Shown piece after piece: positions 1 to 15,000 of a stretch of 33,392 bases of DNA (the first letter of the stretch is position 1; each line of letters begins with the position of its first letter). This stretch comes from Bdellovibrionota bacterium. GTDB lineage: Bacteria; Bdellovibrionota_C; UBA2361; OMII01. The position numbers are program-made. The stretch is taken from contig JBIKWQ010000033.1 of NCBI GenBank assembly GCA_044356215.1, positions 1-33,392 of the forward strand, written 5' to 3'.

Positions 1-3000
1 CAAAATATTTTTTACCACAGAGGACGCAGAGGACACAGAGAAAACTCCATAATTGCCCATAAAATGGCCGTTCTCTGTGTCCTCTGCGTCCTCTGTGGTG
101 ATAAAGAACTGCAACGCAATACCGGCGAAATAGTTACTTTCGAATCTTAAAAGGCCCAGTTTTCGGCGGCTGAGCCCCCTGCCTCCGCCGCTTTTCACGC
201 TCCGCTGGCGATAAAGGCTTCGCAACCGTTGTAACAGCGCCTCTTGAGCGACTAAGGGCTTCATCGGTTTTAATCTTAAATGAAGCTGCGGCGCCCTCTC
301 TCTGCTCCCGCTTGTCGGTTTGCCCGACCGTCGACCCTTTCGGCCTTAGCCCTCGATCCTTGGTATCCCCGGCTCCTAAATCACTCTTGGGTTTAGGCGC
401 AAACCGCTCAGATGTTTCGCCTTCCTCACGAGCTAGAACACGCTCATCAACCCAATCTGCCAAACCGATCTCATCAACCTCAAAACGCTCAGGGGTGACT
501 AAAAACTCACGTCCCTCCCATTTTTCAGGGAGCTCCGCGTTGAACCAAAATGATCGGCCCTTCACAATCTTTCCATTCCCGAGATCGAACCACGCCAGCC
601 CTTTTTCCGCCGACATCTCATGCTTGAGCTCCTCGGCACTGACCAGATCTTTCTCGGCTTCAGAAAAGCTTACACTTTGCGATTCGCTTCCTGTTCTGCG
701 AGCGCTGATATCAAAAGCGCCTTTCATCGCTGAACTGCTTACTCCTGTTACAACCCCTGTACCTACCGACTTCTTTGTTGACGTTATCTTACCAAACCAT
801 TCAGTCATGTCCGCCGCGGTGCGGTTATCCCCTATCCGCATCATTACCTTTAGATTGACGTTCGCCATTACCCGCTCGTAAAACGATTCGCTTAGCCCCA
901 TCGCGGCATCTGTTAATCCACCGGTTGATTGAGCGCCAAATAGAAGAGCGAACCTTCCCCTGCGAGCGAGCTCAAATAAGTTGGCCCATGTAGGACCGAA
1001 TGTGGACGAACCTTCGTCGATGATAACTAGATGTGGGTCCTCTAAATTATGAATCCTGGAAGAAGTAATCTCTCCGATAGATACCTCTAAATCCTCGCGG
1101 AAGACCTTCACCATTCGCGCCGCGCTTTCAGCTTCCTCGAGTCTAGGCAACATGAAATAGATGATCTTTCCCCTCAGTATGGCGTCTGTGAGAACGAGAT
1201 CGGTATATTTAGAGCAGAAAACTTCACCAGCGGAGCTCCCGGCGATAGCATGAAGCTCAGAGGCGATGCCGCGCAGATTCTCGGTTATTCGCGCTGAATC
1301 AAGATTCCCTTTTGGGTTTCGGTAGCTCGACGCTAAGTGCCCAAGCTCCACAAGCGCCTGACGCGCACCTATTTTGTGAAGCATATTTCGGAGCTGCGGA
1401 TAAGCGATCTGAAAAGCGGATAGAGCGACCGCGATATCACGAATCGACCAGGACAGACCGAAGCTCTCCATCGCGCGCACCATGCGATAAATAGAGTCCG
1501 CGGCTAATCGATCATAGTGTTTAGTGGAACTCTGATCTGATGTTGGTGGCAGTCCGGCTCGAAGCACCTTACGCGCCTTCACATCGGCTCTCTGATTGGT
1601 CATGACAAAATTATATGAGTGAACTGGATCGAAAGGATCGATAACCACCAGGTCCTCGATGCGACCTGTAATTAAAGCCATCATGATAATGTGCGCTAAC
1701 GTCGCTGAATCGCGTTTGGCGTCGATAAAAGTGCAGCCACTAGCTCGGCCACGCGCCATCTGCTGAAAGATGAGTGACTCCAACCAGAGAGTCTTGCCTA
1801 CTCCAGTTTTAGCGAAGACAGCTCCATGCGTGCAGATTTCATCGTCTGATACCCATAAAGGATCGCCTGAGTCGAGTTCAAAGCCGACTAAATACCGATC
1901 TAGCATCTTTTTGTCTTTGGTCCGACATTCCTCGATTGCTTTGCTGAAGCAACCGCGATCAGGGGGCATACCCAGAACCGGTCTACCACCACGGGCTAGA
2001 GACTCCTTTTGTCGCTCATTCTCTAAGCCCATTCTTTTCCCTAGACTAAATCCACCCATGCCGAGCGCATAAGCAGGAATAATCCCAAGTCCCCACATCA
2101 AAAACGGATCAAGCCCGGCGCCAAACGGAGAAGCGGCCGCTCCTATAGCGCCAAGGGAAGCCAATCCGCCAGTAAATAAGGCGCGCTTGAGCTCTTGTTC
2201 GCTCCGGTTCCTATAGTTTCCCTGTTTATAGTCGCGCGCCATGCTTACTCCAATGAAGCCCCAAAAGACTTCAACTTTAAACTGATCGGGCTATTCAAAC
2301 CCTTCTACTGTCTCTTTTATTGTCGTTACATCCTCTATCCCTCGCAACAGCTTCTGATAGTCGTTTTGAGTCTCCGCTATGGTAACTCGATCAAATGTCT
2401 TGTAACGGGTCTGCCAGTTAGCCCCCCAGACCTCGCGCATCTTCCCGCCACGGAACGCCATCATTCCAGGGAGCCCCAAGAGCCCTAAATCATTGGCGCC
2501 AGCTAGCGGAGCTTTGCTCCCGAAAACCGCGAACATGGTGTGAGTATCAGGAACGGTGTAGTCACCCACCCTACTCGCCAGCCAGCCGAAACTCGATAAT
2601 GCGTAACGCAGTACGACCCAATCTCGTAGCTCATCGCTCTTTAATCCGTGAAGTATGCTCAAATTTTCTATCTCTTGATCAGAGGGTGGATCCGCAATCC
2701 GTTCGAATGCGAGGAGTGTCTCAATAGCAGAATCATCATCACCTCTGATTGTTGCAGAGATCTCCCTCTTTTGGGCGTTGCTTACCCTCTTGAGTAATCC
2801 ACGGAGCTTTACAACGACCGAGTCATCAACCAGGTTTCGCCACTCGCGAGCCACTAACCCCACTGGAAGAAAAAGGAGATCCCCTCTCCCAGCTAACCCG
2901 TTGCGCTTAAAGTTATCGGCCATTGAGCCGGTCGGATTAAAAAATTCGGCCTGCCATAGCAGGGAGAGCTCGCGAATTAACCCAAAAAGCTCTACCTCAG

Positions 3001-12000: not shown

Positions 12001-15000
12001 CCAGGCCATCAAGAGGTGGTAGAGGTGCGACAAGGTAGGTGGCAATACTACAAACGGCCCAATTCGAAATAGGATAGCTACCAATAGAAAGCTATGAGTC
12101 TAATAAGTGTTAAAAATCTCTTCGGCCCCCTCGGTAACAAGTTTCAGATGGGTGGGCTGATAATAGCTGTGGCTCTCGTTTTGGCTATTAGGATGGGAAG
12201 CAGCCTACCATCTAGGGGGGATGATGACCGTGGATACGACCGTTCCGGTGTGGCCCCGGCTGCGCTAAGAGATTTTAGGAGAAATGAGAAAAATCAAAGG
12301 GGCCTGCCCTCAAAGACGACCGATGACGTTCTGGATAGCCTGATCGAAGGTAAGTTGGACGACAATGAGCCCCAGGATGAAGGCCAAAACGAGAAAGGCG
12401 AGTCATTTCAGGATATTAGAAAGTCTTTGGGCCTCGAATAAGGAGAGCTCGAGCAGTTTTTAGGCGTCTCCCTCCGCTAGCCTCGGATGCATTAATTTCA
12501 AAATCTTACCTGAAGCAGAAGTCGCTTAAGTCACGATAAGACTGAGACAGTTTCATAACGGATTATAGACTGTTCGGTTTTGGGCTGCCAGAAAGGACTA
12601 ACTCATGTTCTTCAATGATTTTAAAGTAAATATGACAACCACTAAGCTGCGGGCCTCATTACGACTCGTCGTAGCTACTATGACCGTTCTCGAGCCGTTT
12701 CTCTGCGGAGCGGCTTCGGCTCAATTTAATGAAGCCGACATGGTTGATTCATTCGCTCCTGCTGAGGCGAGTCCAGCGGATTTTCACAACGAAAAATTCA
12801 AAGAGGCCGAGCTGGCGTTAACTCAAGGTCTAGCAAGGTCAATCGCGCCTGTTGCTCAAGAACGAAAACAACCAAATTTAAGGCAGGTGTCTGCAGTATC
12901 AAGCCCGAAAATAAAACCAGAGGTAAACGAGAATAGACATGGTGTGCCGGTTATCACGGATGGGCTCGGTGTTACTAATACTCAGATCGATCTGGACGAC
13001 TTCGCCGATACATCGCGAATGAAGGCGGAAAAGACTGAAAGGATCGCCAAAGTTTCTAAGCCGGTCGCTCCGATACAGGCCAAACCAGATGTTAAGCCGC
13101 AGGTTCAGGTTGTCCAAAACAAAAATTCTGAACAAGAGAAAGAGATCTCCGATTTACGACGGGAGCTAGCTGAGGCTCGGAGCTCATTAGCCGCGGCGGA
13201 ACTGGAGATATCGAGATTATCCAGCATTATTCAGGACTCAAGCAGGGCGCGACTAAATATAAAAGAGTCCCCGGCACTCTCTCAGCAAAAGAAGCCGTCG
13301 CAAAGCGAAACCGTGGCGCGAATCAATAGCAGACCGCCGGTACCACAAAATACCGCGCTGGCGAGCGGGCAGGATATCGGCTCAGACTTGCAGGTAGCAA
13401 TGGTATCCGTAGACAAAGCAGACCTTAGACTAGGACCAGGAAGAAATCACTCCGCGTTGATGAGCCTCAGAAGAGGCTCTCGGCTCGCGGTCGAGGCCCG
13501 TCAAGGTGAGTGGTATCGAGTTTTCGCTCCTAACGGCCAAAGGGCATGGATCCATTCAGCTCTAGTTAAGTTCGGAGACGGCGCTGCTAGCATGAACGAT
13601 GGCAGCTCCGTCAAAGTGAAGGGATATGATAGCGGTATTAGGTAGACCTTCTAAACTACGGATTCTTTCGCCGCTTTACGCTATCATAACAGCGCTGAGC
13701 GGCATTTATCTTCCGTCAGATGCCCAAGCTGTTCCACTGATCGGTAGCGTGGGACAACAGATTAATTCCAATTTCGTTTACCCTGTCATGGGGCCACGAA
13801 CCTCAAGTAGCTTCGGGGCGCGCTGGCATCCGGTCAAGAAGAAAGTTAAGCGCCACCATCACGGAGTTGACTTAGCCGCTCCCAAGGGCTCAATAATAAG
13901 AGCCATAGCTGATGGTCAGATAATCTATTCAGACCCGCTGGGCGGCTACGGCAATCTGATCGTGATTAAGCACGCTAATGGCCTCACTAGTCACTACGGA
14001 CACTGCGACAAAACCCGCGTCTCTGTTGGTAGAGCAGTGAGAGCTGGCGATATAATCGGCACTGTAGGAAGCTCTGGCTTGTCCACCGGTCCGCATCTTC
14101 ATTTTGAGATCCGCCAGGATGGACAGCCGAAACACCCTGAACAGGTACTCCCCGGACTAGACCTCCCAGCGGCGGGATAACTGCCAGTCGCAGCTCATAC
14201 TGAACACGCTTAGATTTAGGACAATACTCGCCCAATGTACGAGCCTAACGTTTTTTTTAATCAGCAAATTTTTTTCAATAATTATGTCACACGTCGCTTT
14301 GATGTTAGCATAACCTATGTAGAAACTGGGGCGTGAAAGACCGCCGTATTTGAAGAGATAGAAATTAACATTTAATTTAAGGATTGTTTTATGAAGGCTA
14401 AAATAACATCAATGTTTAACAAGACACGTGAGGCAGCTCTGGACCTTGGCAGAAAAGTGGCGGTAGCTAAACGCGCCCCATCAGAGGCACAAGGACGCAT
14501 GATACTCTTCACGTTCGGAATTGTATGTCTTGGTCTAGCGTTTTCTGACCACGCTCTCGCGAATGACTGGGCAGCGCGTTCCGGACAGGTTGAGGATACC
14601 CGTATCGCGCAGGCGGTAGCGACTCTCTTTACCTTCCTAGAGGGAAGCTTTGGAGCGTTAATCATGGCGGCTTCCGGAATCGGAGCTGTTCTCAGCGCCG
14701 CGTTCGGTCAGTACAAGGCCGCCCTAAGCTGTATGGTTGTGGCAGTGGGAGCTTTCATCCTCCGCTCGATGATGAACACGTTCTTCAACGTTACAAGCAT
14801 CGAAGGCCAGGGCGATTTCAGCTCGGTTAACTAAACAGCTAAGTCTGTTCGCGCCCGCGAGGGCGCTCTGCCCCCTGATTCACCGATAAGGCTGGGTCAG
14901 GGGGTTTCCTTTTTGTAGCTCGCTAGCCGCTCTTTAATGATCTTCAAACAGTTCTCGTCCTTCTCATCTCGCTGCCGCTCGAGTAGTACGCTGCGGTCCG

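Follow-up and report, generated by a model that had tools for sequence, protein, structure and literature searches.

The window, the whole stretch of 33,392 nucleotides that was analyzed, came from an uncultured freshwater Bdellovibrio-like bacterium. The 15 intact genes in 134-14834 belong to a very diverged member of the F lineage of type IV secretion systems (T4SSs; Table 1), and the gene order from 4549 to 14834 was retained in six families and in the relative G101.

Table 1. Genes of the T4SS cluster, with positions in the window
Gene product	Position	Strand	Basis of assignment
Coupling ATPase (T4CP), 702 aa	134..2242	-	Pfam TraG-D_C, NCBIfam SXT_TraD, DotL match in PDB
p681, membrane-anchored T4CP partner, 681 aa	2291..4336	-	No family match
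SP120, small secreted protein, first gene of main operon	4549..4911	+	Signal-peptide-like N-terminus
TraL/VirB3-like candidate, 131 aa	4950..5345	+	Position before TraE, size, one membrane helix only
TraE (VirB8-like)	5361..6077	+	Pfam TraE
TraK (VirB9-like), with signal peptide	6077..6883	+	Pfam TraK_C under cut-off, position
TraB (VirB10-like)	6892..8055	+	Pfam TrbI, NCBIfam F-type TraB
TraV-like lipoprotein	8075..8521	+	Pfam TraV under cut-off, lipobox LSGC in translation
Lp163, second lipoprotein	8521..9012	+	Lipobox TAGC in translation
TraC, VirB4-family ATPase, 913 aa	9018..11759	+	PF11130, P-loop_TraG, TIGR02746
Lp112, small lipoprotein-like protein	11734..12072	+	Conserved C-terminal part
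TM115, small fast-evolving membrane protein	12094..12441	+	One membrane helix
Coiled-coil and SH3b domain protein	12605..13645	+	Pfam SH3_3, SH3_4
M23 peptidoglycan endopeptidase	13626..14180	+	Pfam Peptidase_M23, HxxxD and HxH motifs in translation
Candidate TraA/VirB2-type pilin	14391..14834	+	Pfam TrbC under cut-off, architecture

Channel, pilin and cell-wall genes

The profile search was repeated, and all Pfam values of the preliminary description were reproduced with identical E-values. TraC was matched by PF11130 (TraC_F_IV, E = 3.9e-15) and P-loop_TraG (E = 3.1e-11), its Walker A (GVSGAGKS) and Walker B motifs were intact, and VirB4 (4ag5, E = 6.5e-6) was found among the PDB sequences. 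The NCBIfam model TraC-F-type (TIGR02746) gave E = 8e-61, and F-type TraB gave E = 1.4e-12 for TraB, both far under the curated cut-offs. TraB also matched Pfam TrbI (E = 4.2e-15, 56.5 bits against a cut-off of 35), and TraE matched Pfam TraE (E = 8.3e-6, 25.8 bits against 24.8). The Pfam matches of TraV (E = 0.0019, 19.6 bits against 21) and TraK (TraK_C, E = 0.0032) fell under the cut-off; TraK was also matched by NCBIfam TraK_Ftype (E = 0.021) and was conserved in position, with 38-68% identity in relatives. The only grounds for calling the gene before TraE TraL-like were its location, its length and the one membrane helix, as the Pfam and NCBIfam searches gave no family match; this candidate was conserved across the phylum at 37-65% identity. 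SP120 had no Pfam or NCBIfam family match and showed 40-82% identity in relatives from six families and in G101, while Lp163, with no match in Pfam, NCBIfam or the PDB sequences, showed 30-60% identity in relatives. The conservation of Lp112, which had no family match, lay in the C-terminal 50-60 residues (41-84% identity over residues ~50-112 in relatives), and TM115 showed just 29-53% identity inside the genus.

The SH3b protein (SH3_3, E = 1e-9; SH3_4, E = 4.8e-8) and the M23 protein (E = 5.5e-34) formed a gene pair that was also present in G101, and the M23 endopeptidase probably replaces the VirB1-type cell-wall hydrolase. The pilin candidate matched Pfam TrbC/VirB2 under the cut-off (E = 0.034). 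An alignment of nine orthologues revealed a long leader ending in AxA, followed by two hydrophobic helices with a GQYK loop between them, and the gene was found in three tandem copies in G020. TrbC proteins made up 14% of the members of a neighbor cluster in the ESM Atlas (score 0.88), which is a lead only.

To call the operon complete-looking, as had been done, was too strong. TraW, TraN and TraH had no matches in five genomes each, TraU had none in one separate set of five, TraF was represented by generic thioredoxin matches under the cut-off, and the TraG_N-like (VirB6-like) gene was located on another contig (C46). A TraU-like gene was seen in one family only, in G018, a genome outside that set of five. 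The TraG-like and TraU-like genes lay at a second locus or, in one family, within the cluster. Because these F-specific parts (TraW, TraN, TraH and TraU) were not found in those sets of five genomes, a working pilus is not established. RNA-library contigs from four metatranscriptome runs of four studies matched 4600-14821 at 95% identity or more and covered both the TraL/VirB3-like candidate and the pilin gene in all four runs; these contigs had been assembled from libraries in which DNA may be present, and they give no ranking of genes and no strand.

The coupling module and a Whirly-fold neighbor

The translated T4CP contained Walker A (GVGKT) and Walker B (VIIDEG) motifs; the membrane helices at its N-terminus were weak, and its C-terminal tail was variable. 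It matched Pfam TraG-D_C (E = 4e-5, 24 bits against a cut-off of 22) and, far under the curated cut-off, NCBIfam SXT_TraD (E = 8e-17); the sole match among PDB sequences was DotL/IcmO (6sz9_A, E = 2.2e-12). The gene was found in 114 of 124 phylum genomes with 58-81% identity. Directly upstream of it there was always p681 (113/124 genomes), a protein of about three N-terminal membrane helices and a cytoplasmic part of ~500 residues (AF2 model, pLDDT 81.5) with an HD-like helical core that had no HD catalytic residues. No Pfam or NCBIfam family matched p681, and Foldseek returned nothing at E ≤ 0.001 for its model. VIA-align of residues 218-456 gave weak similarities to YhaM (Z = 8.9) and PPX/GppA (Z = 8.3), and neither program found a fold match to DotM. 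The predicted complex of T4CP and p681 scored 0.85, and the best of three controls scored 0.00. Of 157 solved complexes 116 attained this mark, as against 2 of 215 mismatched pairs. The runs, made with alignments built for this analysis, shared at least 81% of the contacts with a partner pLDDT of at least 82, and the predicted interface included invariant residues of p681.

T4CP and p681 form a two-gene module. Both were absent from nine genomes, and they were lost together in at least three lineages that retained the channel. The coupling protein is not universal; the channel, TraC and the pilin were intact without the module in G008, G009, G082, G084, G085, G091 and G092. In at least seven families (among them f1, f11, f19, f23, f27 and f31) the module lay next to the T4SS operon in divergent orientation, and in several genomes, e.g. 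G024 and G014, it was distant from the TraC cluster. An orphan copy with 63% identity was found on the linear plasmid pLBX of Leptolyngbya boryana, beside a protelomerase and parAB; no close TraC was among the plasmid matches listed, and a local search revealed no other shared neighbor.

A third protein, p159, adjoined the coupling module in relatives. It was found in 72 of the 73 genomes of high quality, among them every T4CP-less lineage, and was still beside the T4SS cluster after deletion of the T4CP in G008, G009 and G082. In this genome its gene lay outside the window (C99:4306-4779), where three unrelated ORFs separated it from the end of that contig. VIA-align showed similarity to StWhy2 (Z = 12.8), PBF-2 (Z = 12.4) and MRP1/2 (Z = 12.3) over 127-137 of 158 residues, with the next row at Z = 6.9, and the best Foldseek rows were almost all PURA, Whirly or MRP proteins. 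Weaker rows were an SsgA-like protein (Z = 6.1, VIA-align) and SsgB (Foldseek). SsgA/SsgB-type cell-division proteins share the Whirly fold and are not known to bind DNA. In shape p159 resembles binders of single-stranded DNA, and its fold, typical of nucleic-acid binders, suggests that it may bind nucleic acid, yet a shared fold shows no function.

Descent and genomic setting

TraC occurred once per genome in 121 of the 124 phylum genomes, including all 73 of high quality, with 56-94% identity. The earlier counts proved to be minimum values: a search with the TraC protein itself gave matches in 34/34 genomes of the genus, 89/91 of the order and 121/124 of the phylum, and the vertically inherited core set that had been claimed for the order extends to the whole phylum. 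The identity dropped with taxonomic distance (genus 83-94%, order 61-78%, other orders 56-65%), and this agreement with taxonomy left no sign of transfer between lineages. Among the 15 plasmid records listed, the closest TraC had at most 26% identity, and all of the best-scoring 5000 records were below 60% identity to this TraC. In the analysis of selection against the nearest species, dN was 0.046-0.054 for TraC and 0.106-0.121 for the adjoining ispG, with synonymous sites saturated.

The description of the system as a relaxase-less F-lineage T4SS was supported, and PF03432, PF08751, PF03389, PF07514, PF01076 and PF02486 had no matches in this genome. Of the 124 genomes, those with a match over the curated cut-off numbered 17 for PF03432, 6 for PF08751, 1 for PF03389 and 0 for PF07514, and PF01076 and PF02486 had none in five genomes. 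Relaxases are sporadic across the phylum, and all their matches there were on contigs other than that of the T4SS. The GC content was even, and positions 1-20000 were free of tRNA genes and of direct repeats at least 16 nt long. The contig begins 133 nt beyond the T4CP gene, an edge too close for the window alone to show that no integrase is nearby, as had been stated, but the long contigs of relatives showed housekeeping genes beyond it; both flanks were housekeeping genes in same-genus contigs. The cluster is situated amid housekeeping genes, without integrase, tRNA or flanking repeats, on an RPA-type second replicon.

This location had also been proposed before, and the contigs agreed with it. 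RPA was found in 114 of 124 genomes. By comparison of the lists by eye, 112 genomes had TraC and RPA, and in 4 of them the two were on one contig (G076, G095, G101 and G111; distance to the initiator 10-183 kb); 107 genomes had TraC and DnaA, and in none of them were these on one contig. The RPA linkage described for contig C2 of G011 was not found in the genome numbered G011 here, where RPA is on C4 and TraC on C14/C46. The same pattern was present on C2 of G101, perhaps the same genome under a different number: RPA lay at 587071, followed by the coupling protein (64% identity) at 648378 and TraC (63%) at 658602. In G101, DnaA was on a contig of 3.26 Mb, and RPA and the T4SS were on one of 1.87 Mb. 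The single-contig genome G025 (82% complete) contained DnaA and had no RPA, TraC, T4CP, p159 or ispG. The locus is the principal one of an F-lineage T4SS descendant that is host-owned and passed on vertically, a core trait of the phylum on its RPA-type second replicon. That the T4SS belongs to the host and is not a mobile element is very probable, and the findings are consistent with a megaplasmid that came first and was domesticated afterwards.

Possible functions of the machine

The cell has probably put the machine to a use of its own. TraE, TraK, TraB, TraV and the extra lipoproteins would form an envelope-spanning channel, for which the M23/SH3 pair would open the cell wall. With TraC as the driving ATPase, the TraA/VirB2-like pilin would be assembled into a pilus, and the TraG_N-like proteins from the second locus would complete the inner-membrane part. 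The DotL-like T4CP, held at the membrane by p681, would pass a cytoplasmic substrate into the channel. The preliminary description had offered contact-dependent delivery of protein or DNA; we infer a function with nucleic acid as the preferred cargo and protein delivery as its rival. The role of the machine would then be to exchange or take up cellular DNA from cell to cell without a relaxase, not to transfer a plasmid. It is tentatively suggested that the cargo includes single-stranded nucleic acid, because p159 was near-universal, lay beside the module and was retained where the module was lost. Against this stands that no enzyme producing a transferable single strand was found. Known T4CPs recognize DNA via a relaxase.

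Protein export would account just as well for the DotL-like T4CP and its membrane partner, as in a contact-dependent injector of effectors into prey, competitors or a host through the F-like channel. The T4CP occurred in 114/124 genomes without a co-distributed relaxase, its sole PDB match was DotL, p681 had the topology of T4CP adaptors (N-terminal helices and a cytoplasmic domain) with predicted T4CP binding, and the record titles place the phylum within largely predatory Bdellovibrio-like bacteria. However, no effector, IcmS/W-like chaperone or immunity gene was recognized in or beside the cluster, the channel was retained where the T4CP was lost, and the universally retained neighbor p159 had a fold typical of nucleic-acid binders. 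An injector is somewhat less likely, and the evidence leans somewhat toward nucleic acid over protein owing to the Whirly-fold protein.

Conjugation of the second replicon, or of the whole genome in an Hfr-like manner, would require a relaxase of an unrecognized family, and the search covered six. The T4CP, pilin and channel were all retained, the RPA initiator was close by in four genomes, and the HD-like core of p681 recalls the MOBH relaxases, which also have this fold. p681, however, is membrane-anchored and has a single invariant His and no HD metal ligand; together with the lack of the six families here, their scatter elsewhere, the agreement of TraC identity with taxonomy and the loss of the T4CP in some lineages, this makes continued conjugation improbable. 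Slightly less probable still is a machine that solely builds an F-like pilus, with which the cell would attach, make surface contact or retract, and for which the coupling module is optional. The intact channel, TraC and pilin in lineages lacking T4CP and p681, the RNA-library cover of the pilin gene in 4/4 runs and the pilin paralogues of G020 would fit such a pilus, but the T4CP was strongly constrained (58-81% identity, 114/124 genomes), p159 has no obvious pilus role, TraW and TraH (0/5 genomes each) and TraU (0/5 of a different set) gave no match, and the matches for TraF were generic and under the cut-off. The coupling module may not be bound to the T4SS, as it was lost in at least three lineages and distant from TraC in several genomes, and its orphan copy by the protelomerase and parAB is also in keeping with a function in replicon maintenance. 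A DNA-handling module of T4CP, p681 and p159 that acts outside the T4SS, in segregation or maintenance of the second replicon, is nevertheless the least probable explanation, since the T4CP contained the signature domain TraG-D_C with SXT_TraD and DotL as best matches, the module was divergently adjacent to the operon in at least seven families, and p159 stayed by the cluster after deletion of the T4CP (G008, G009 and G082).

New in this analysis are the module of the DotL-like T4CP and p681, the protein p159, the TraG-like and TraU-like genes and the RNA-library cover. The coupling ATPase resembles DotL, and the models for the injection of protein effectors are Dot/Icm and the bacteria-killing X-T4SS; the exchange or uptake of DNA, which is the preferred reading, is likened to the archaeal Ced system and ComB.

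Composition and surroundings of the gene cluster

The cluster, at positions 134-14834 of a window formed by the first 33,392 bases of contig C120, comprised 15 intact, tightly packed ORFs in two divergent units (table below), in a genome of 3.24 Mb (131 contigs, 96.5% complete). The preliminary description had read it as a complete-looking F-like type IV secretion system (T4SS), and all of its Pfam values were reproduced. TraE and TraB/TrbI scored over the Pfam cut-offs, TraK_C and TraV under them, and TraL had no match; the genes followed the order of F. TraC was identified as a VirB4 ATPase of the F type by PF11130 (56.2 bits against a cut-off of 28.1) and matched TIGR02746 at 8e-61, though its 205.9 bits fell well short of the curated cut-off, 567. 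The coupling ATPase (T4CP) matched SXT_TraD at 8e-17 and TraB the F-type TraB family at 1.4e-12. Because these three NCBIfam matches all fell far under the curated cut-offs, TraC, T4CP and TraB are distant members of their families. Among 72,556 plasmids, the closest TraC reached at most 26% identity in the 15 matches listed, and the closest TraB at most 34% over half its length. Translation showed that both ATPases keep their Walker motifs and the M23 peptidase its metal ligands. No PDB sequence match was found for the pilin-like protein or for Lp163, the second lipoprotein of the operon. Nine orthologues of the 147-aa pilin-like protein shared a variable leader ending in AxA and two conserved hydrophobic helices with a GQY(K/R) loop between them, the architecture of TraA/VirB2 pilins. 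In one relative (G020), the M23 gene was followed by three pilin paralogues in tandem.

Features of the cluster, its surroundings and related loci
Feature	Position	Strand	Remark
T4CP, 702-aa coupling ATPase	134-2242	-	ORF of minus unit
p681, 681-aa membrane protein	2291-4336	-	ORF of minus unit
SP120 (small, secreted), TraL-like (131 aa), TraE, TraK, TraB		+	start of plus unit
TraV-like lipoprotein, second lipoprotein, TraC (913 aa), two small envelope proteins		+	middle of plus unit
SH3b-domain protein, M23 peptidase, pilin-like protein (147 aa)		+	end of plus unit
763-aa kinase-like protein	14897-17188	-	directly after pilin gene
Secreted 1145-aa protein	24794-28231	+	DUF1554, endostatin-like and CarboxypepD_reg-like parts
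1301-aa MutS-amidase protein	28871-32776	-	full MutS (domains I-V) fused to Amidase_3 (residues 1083-1295)
TraG_N-like ORF, 1116 aa	C46:40791-44141		this genome
p159, 159-aa Whirly-fold protein	C99:4306-4779		this genome
ORFs of 287 aa, 323 aa (DnaJ-like) and 376 aa	C99 (L038) 613-3980		this genome
RPA-type initiator genes	C15:17596-18273; C33:3011-3598		this genome, different contigs
Four tandem TraG_N-like paralogues, 614-1147 aa	G101:C1:2768616-2782089 (L030/L031)		relative of a different order
Three tandem pilin paralogues	L033:3464-6037		G020
Orphan T4CP gene	pLBX (L095) 352855-354924		Leptolyngbya boryana linear plasmid

Assembled metatranscriptome contigs from four runs in four studies (rivers and a lake) lay on 4600-14821 at 95% identity or more, and the pilin and TraL-like genes were covered in all four runs. 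Because the libraries may contain DNA and the runs were picked by this very stretch, these contigs do no more than agree with expression in nature. Many lake metagenomes contain this DNA, and in 13 runs at least half of the words sampled from it were present. No cover by RNA-library contigs was found on 1-4002 or 15342-17342, which is no sign of silence because the runs were found using 4540-14500. Scans for promoters and terminators found about as many as chance predicts (15, with 14.9 expected, and 17, with 16.6 expected).

To the right of the cluster, the genes were housekeeping genes (ispG, tgt, queA, an SPFH protein gene, coaBC and mutS), and the GC content of the window was even. The contig ended 133 nt past the T4CP gene, and the left surroundings were taken from relatives. 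In two genomes of the same genus with long contigs (G073 and G070), T4CP was followed by the gene of p159 and a fast-evolving gene of 434-467 aa, and further out by tlyA-like, ileS, cysDN and other housekeeping genes. No integrase family was matched in the 28 ORFs of the window or in the 21 flank ORFs of relatives, and the latter gave no relaxase match either. Neither a tRNA gene nor a direct repeat of at least 16 nt was found within 1-20000. Of the marks of a conjugative element, neither patchy spread (TraC occurs in 121 of 124 genomes of the phylum) nor an integrase, att repeats or a border tRNA was found in these searches. In a PHROGs scan of 16 proteins, the M23 peptidase was the sole match.

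The 763-aa protein encoded directly after the pilin gene weakly resembled protein kinases at its N-terminus (LanL kinase part 4.6e-4, Bud32 0.04); it also had a single membrane helix and an extended helical region at the C-terminus. Its identity inside the genus was 36-58%. It was left out as a part of the system, being conserved in the genus only and not found beside the cluster in other families. Two further ORFs of the window were unusual in their own right. The MutS-amidase protein is odd in uniting a repair protein, which is cytoplasmic, with a cell-wall enzyme of the periplasm, an N-acetylmuramoyl-L-alanine amidase; a membrane helix at about residues 893-911 joins the two. The gene of the secreted 1145-aa protein showed unusually strong base skew (GC skew -0.20, AT skew +0.20).

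The description of the system as complete-looking proved too strong, since several F-specific assembly and mating-pair genes were not found in the genomes searched and the TraG_N-like gene was located elsewhere. TraU (PF06834) and TraH (PF06122) were each found in none of five genomes (this one, G101, G024, G073 and G070), and TraN (PF06986) and TraW_N (PF12477) in none of another five (this one, G101, G024, G020 and G018). For TraF (PF13728), only generic thioredoxin matches under the cut-off appeared. TraG_N (PF07916), a VirB6-like domain, was matched in 69 of 124 genomes of the phylum at E<=0.001 and above the cut-off in 20. Its genes were often tandem paralogues, four of them in G101, where they stood after a thioredoxin-like gene and an 805-aa gene. 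The copy in this genome scored under the cut-off and was preceded by a thioredoxin-like protein and a cysteine-rich 577-aa protein, an order resembling that of the trbB/traF-traH-traG genes of F. In one family (f11; G018 and G020), TraG_N-like, 480-aa and TraU-like genes stood within the cluster, between p681 and SP120. The TraU-like ORF of G018, a genome outside the five searched for TraU, scored 28.4 bits against a cut-off of 26.5. When the extra genes of this family (TraU-like, 480-aa and others) were searched by tblastn in our genome, only the TraG-like gene was recovered. The second locus would very likely belong to the same machine because family f11 carries such genes inside the cluster.

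Conservation in the phylum and the second replicon

The spread of the system was followed with the TraC protein as query in the 124 genomes of the phylum, which consists of one class. The preliminary description had called the T4SS a core gene set of the lineage; this was upheld, and the range had been understated, as TraC was found in 89 of 91 genomes at the level of the order and in 121 of 124 across the phylum, the latter including all 73 with at least 90% completeness and at most 5% contamination. The three genomes without a match were 82% (G025), 89% (G078) and 77% (G122) complete. TraC was single-copy per genome unless split by contig ends, and its identity was 83-94% within the genus, 61-78% within the order and 56-65% to other orders. 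From SP120 to the pilin, six families of the order and G101, a member of a different order, shared one gene order. Against the two nearest species, dN was 0.046-0.054 for TraC and 0.106-0.121 for its neighbour ispG, so TraC is more constrained than this enzyme of the MEP pathway. dN/dS was not computable, as synonymous sites were saturated even against the closest species (pS 0.64-0.95). Judged from these sequences, the T4SS is a vertically inherited core gene set, and it is very probably owned by the host and not by a mobile element.

Two small genomes of one family (G091 and G092, family f22; 1.2-1.8 Mb) kept TraC at 56-57% identity and a weak p159 match, and had no match for T4CP, p681, the RPA initiator, or DnaA at E<=1e-30. 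They were 80% and 85% complete, and the gaps may reflect reduction or incompleteness.

The RPA-type replication initiator (PF10134), which marks the second replicon, was found in 114 of 124 genomes and 72 of the 73 high-quality ones, and DnaA in 109 of 124 at E<=1e-30. Co-location, compared by eye from the listed positions, placed TraC on the RPA contig in 4 of 112 genomes with both, at distances of 183 kb (G076), 71 kb (G101), about 38 kb (G095) and about 22 kb (G111), and on the DnaA contig in none of 107 genomes with both. G101 was assembled in three contigs, of 3.26 Mb (DnaA), 1.87 Mb (RPA and T4SS) and 21 kb. These data support the earlier placement of the system on a second, plasmid-type replicon with essential genes, since TraC shared contigs with RPA and never with DnaA. 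G025, a single contig of 2.3 Mb with DnaA (82% complete), lacked RPA, TraC, T4CP, p681, p159 and ispG, and resembles what the main chromosome alone would look like. The pattern is consistent with domestication at the moment when a megaplasmid became a chromosome. In our genome, two RPA-type initiator genes lay on different contigs, which may point to one more plasmid-type replicon in addition to the second chromosome.

The coupling module and the Whirly-fold protein

T4CP was found in 114 of 124 genomes at 58-81% identity. It showed the features of a coupling protein, namely TraG-D_C (24 bits against a cut-off of 22), Walker A and B motifs and a hydrophobic N-terminus, and the sole solved structure matched by its sequence was DotL/IcmO (2.2e-12). 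Its membrane partner p681 was found in 113 of 124 genomes with a profile of 31 sequences, always directly beside T4CP. Nine genomes lacked the two together: two of one genus (G008, 94% complete, and G009, 97%), three of a genus in which the fourth member retains the pair (G082, G084 and G085), two of one family (G091 and G092), and also G094 and G025. Apart from G025, all nine kept a full-length TraC. T4CP and p681 therefore form a module, which has been lost at least three times with the channel kept.

In the model of p681 (pLDDT 81.5), a helical membrane part at the N-terminus was accompanied by a helical core like that of HD domains and by a small beta domain. No relative of p681 was found in Pfam, NCBIfam or by PDB sequence, and no Foldseek match at E<=0.001. 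VIA-align gave weak similarities to HD-domain proteins (Z 7-9), the pCW3 relaxosome accessory protein (7.1) and VirB6/TrwI (7.0), values in the range that the tool calls common for helical proteins. Only one histidine of p681 was invariant. A hidden relaxase of the MOBH type was considered for p681 and rejected in view of the helical-range fold matches, the membrane helices and the lack of an HD motif. The complex predicted for T4CP residues 95-625 and p681 residues 205-670 scored 0.85, whereas none of three controls exceeded 0.00. Of 157 solved complexes, 116 attain this mark, as do 2 of 215 mismatched pairs; these counts hold only roughly here, as custom alignments were used. At least 81% of contacts agreed between runs, and the pLDDT of the partner was at least 82. 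The predicted interface involved the invariant residues G208, A210, C211, R377, H381, R395, R399, S409 and P417 of p681 and residues 160-168 of T4CP. The prediction supports binding between T4CP and p681.

An orphan relative of T4CP (63% identity over 80% of the length) was found on a linear plasmid of the cyanobacterium Leptolyngbya boryana of 505-554 kb (four records). In the one record examined, pLBX, its gene stood beside a protelomerase gene and parAB, and its neighbours had no relatives in our genome or in the examined loci. No match for p681 or p159 was found in the 72,556 plasmids. The orphan suggests, by its sequence, horizontal transfer between distant phyla: the T4CP clade would have moved one or more times and is able to exist independently of this T4SS. 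It also keeps open a role in handling the DNA of the replicon.

p159 was present in 114 of 124 genomes and 72 of the 73 high-quality ones, with 63-84% identity across orders. It occurred in every lineage that has lost T4CP, still beside the T4SS operon (e.g. G008, G009 and G082). In our genome, three unrelated ORFs, one of them DnaJ-like, lay between p159 and the contig start, where the closest species have T4CP; this arrangement is a local rearrangement or insertion, or an assembly break. p159 had no relative in Pfam or by PDB sequence and no match in 50,697 phage records, and in 1.84 billion proteins its family amounted to only 28 representative clusters (E<=0.001). Five representatives (P0200, P0201 and P0204-P0206) were longer, 334-380 aa, with the Whirly-like part C-terminal, and may be fusions or miscalled starts. 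The AF2 model of p159 (pLDDT 79.8, pTM 0.76) showed the beta4-alpha-beta4-alpha arrangement of the Whirly fold. VIA-align placed it closest to potato Why2 (StWhy2; Z 12.8, rmsd 3.5 A, 135 of 158 residues), PBF-2 (Z 12.4) and guide-RNA-binding MRP1/2 (Z 12.3), with the next row at 6.9, and the best Foldseek rows were nearly all PURA, Whirly or MRP at E about 1e-3. By its predicted fold, p159 would be a Whirly/PUR-alpha-like binder of single-stranded nucleic acid, though fold alone shows no function; to our knowledge, no DNA binding is known for SsgA/SsgB-type proteins, which have a Whirly-like fold.

Possible functions and comparison with known systems

In six-frame searches of the 124 genomes, relaxase families exceeded the curated cut-offs in 17 genomes for PF03432 (19 at E<=0.01), 6 for PF08751 and 1 for PF03389. 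PF07514, the MOBH family and the usual companion of SXT/R27-like systems, was found in none. All matches lay on contigs other than that of TraC. As the matches were few and off the TraC contig, relaxases are accessory in the phylum and the T4SS is core. None of these four families was matched in our genome, and PF01076 and PF02486 were absent from all five genomes searched; the earlier statement that the genome has no relaxase of the three main families thus holds and extends to PF07514, PF01076 and PF02486. Among the families searched, no relaxase (MOB) gene was found that would make this a conjugative element. Conjugation by way of an unrecognised relaxase, which the retained channel, pilin and coupling protein would suit, is improbable.

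The reading that we tentatively favour, at somewhat less than even chances, is that the cargo would be single-stranded nucleic acid moved without a relaxase, in an exchange or uptake of cellular DNA like that of Ced or ComB. It is suggested by p159, which stays with the channel even where T4CP is lost, and by the ancestry of coupling proteins, which descend from DNA translocases. Injection of protein effectors would agree with the DotL match of T4CP, while adaptors and effector-immunity pairs of known injection systems were not seen here; we consider it somewhat less likely than the favoured reading, and its closest competitor. A role as a pilus only is improbable too, slightly more so than conjugation: it would fit the conserved pilin and the lineages that keep the channel after losing T4CP and p681, and T4CP and p681 are retained in more than 110 genomes. 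Least probable of all is a coupling module unrelated to the T4SS; the orphan on pLBX and the repeated joint loss could be read in this way, and T4CP and p681 adjoin the channel genes here.

A fuller version of the nucleic-acid reading, which is doubtful as a whole, would see a relaxase-independent apparatus of the whole phylum for DNA exchange or import, a bacterial counterpart of Ced built from an F-like T4SS. The Whirly-fold protein would handle the single strand, the DotL-like T4CP and its novel partner would provide the donor function, and the apparatus would have been inherited with the RPA second chromosome and perhaps have helped to fix it. Should DNA be moved without a relaxase, bacteria would have a new route of gene exchange; should proteins be injected, the machine would be a new weapon or device of host interaction in Bdellovibrio-like bacteria. 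Either way, the locus offers a concrete case of a conjugative megaplasmid turning into a chromosome and of the fate of its transfer genes, with two partners of no known family, the predicted T4CP-binding p681 and the Whirly-fold p159.

In the parts seen of the literature on type IV secretion in Bdellovibrionota and Oligoflexia (including PMC12428579, PMC7308576 and PMC12865303), this system was not described. Ced is a conjugation-derived pilus machine encoded in the archaeal cell's own genome, termed ‘domesticated’, which is described as moving cellular DNA (Beltran et al. 2023, PMC9905601). The machine described here is likewise encoded by the host genome and not on a mobile element, whereas Ced is archaeal with other components and the present one has an F-like bacterial set, a T4CP and a Whirly-fold protein, with DNA transfer as our inference. 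The X-T4SS of Xanthomonas and Lysobacter is also a chromosomal, non-conjugative T4SS with a T4CP, directed against bacteria, but is of the VirB/D4 type with recognisable effector-immunity pairs, and none were seen here. With the Dot/Icm system of Legionella (DotL, DotM, DotN, IcmS/W), the likeness lies in the only structure matched by T4CP and in its membrane-protein partner, which combines N-terminal helices with a cytoplasmic domain. DotM is built in the same way. In contrast, the channel genes here matched F-type and not Dot/Icm families, p681 showed no match to DotM in sequence or fold searches, and no IcmS/W-like adaptors were seen.

The closest kinship is with the F-type systems (MPF-F: F, pED208, R27 and SXT/R391), which share the order TraL-like, TraE, TraK, TraB, TraV and TraC, the F-type TraC, SXT_TraD as best NCBIfam match of T4CP, TraG_N-like genes and, in one family, a TraU-like gene. 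Unlike them, the present system has no relaxase, oriT or integrase, gave no match for TraW, TraN and TraH in five genomes each or for TraU in a different set of five, has M23/SH3 hydrolases in place of the lytic transglycosylase as well as extra lipoproteins, and is fixed in the genomes of a whole phylum instead of being borne by a mobile element. Movement of DNA other than plasmids by chromosomal T4SSs is known from ComB of Helicobacter pylori, a DNA-uptake system, and from the DNA-secreting system of the gonococcal genetic island. ComB dispenses with a T4CP, as do the lineages here that lost it, but is VirB-like and limited to few genera, whereas the present system is F-like and phylum-wide. 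The gonococcal system is F-like as well, but lies on an acquired island and needs a relaxase, whereas the present one is phylum-wide and relaxase-less. Host-adopted chromosomal T4SSs are known in few genera (ComB, the gonococcal island and X-T4SS) and in archaea (Ced); here, a machine of the F lineage is as conserved as a housekeeping enzyme over a whole bacterial phylum and is tied to its second replicon.
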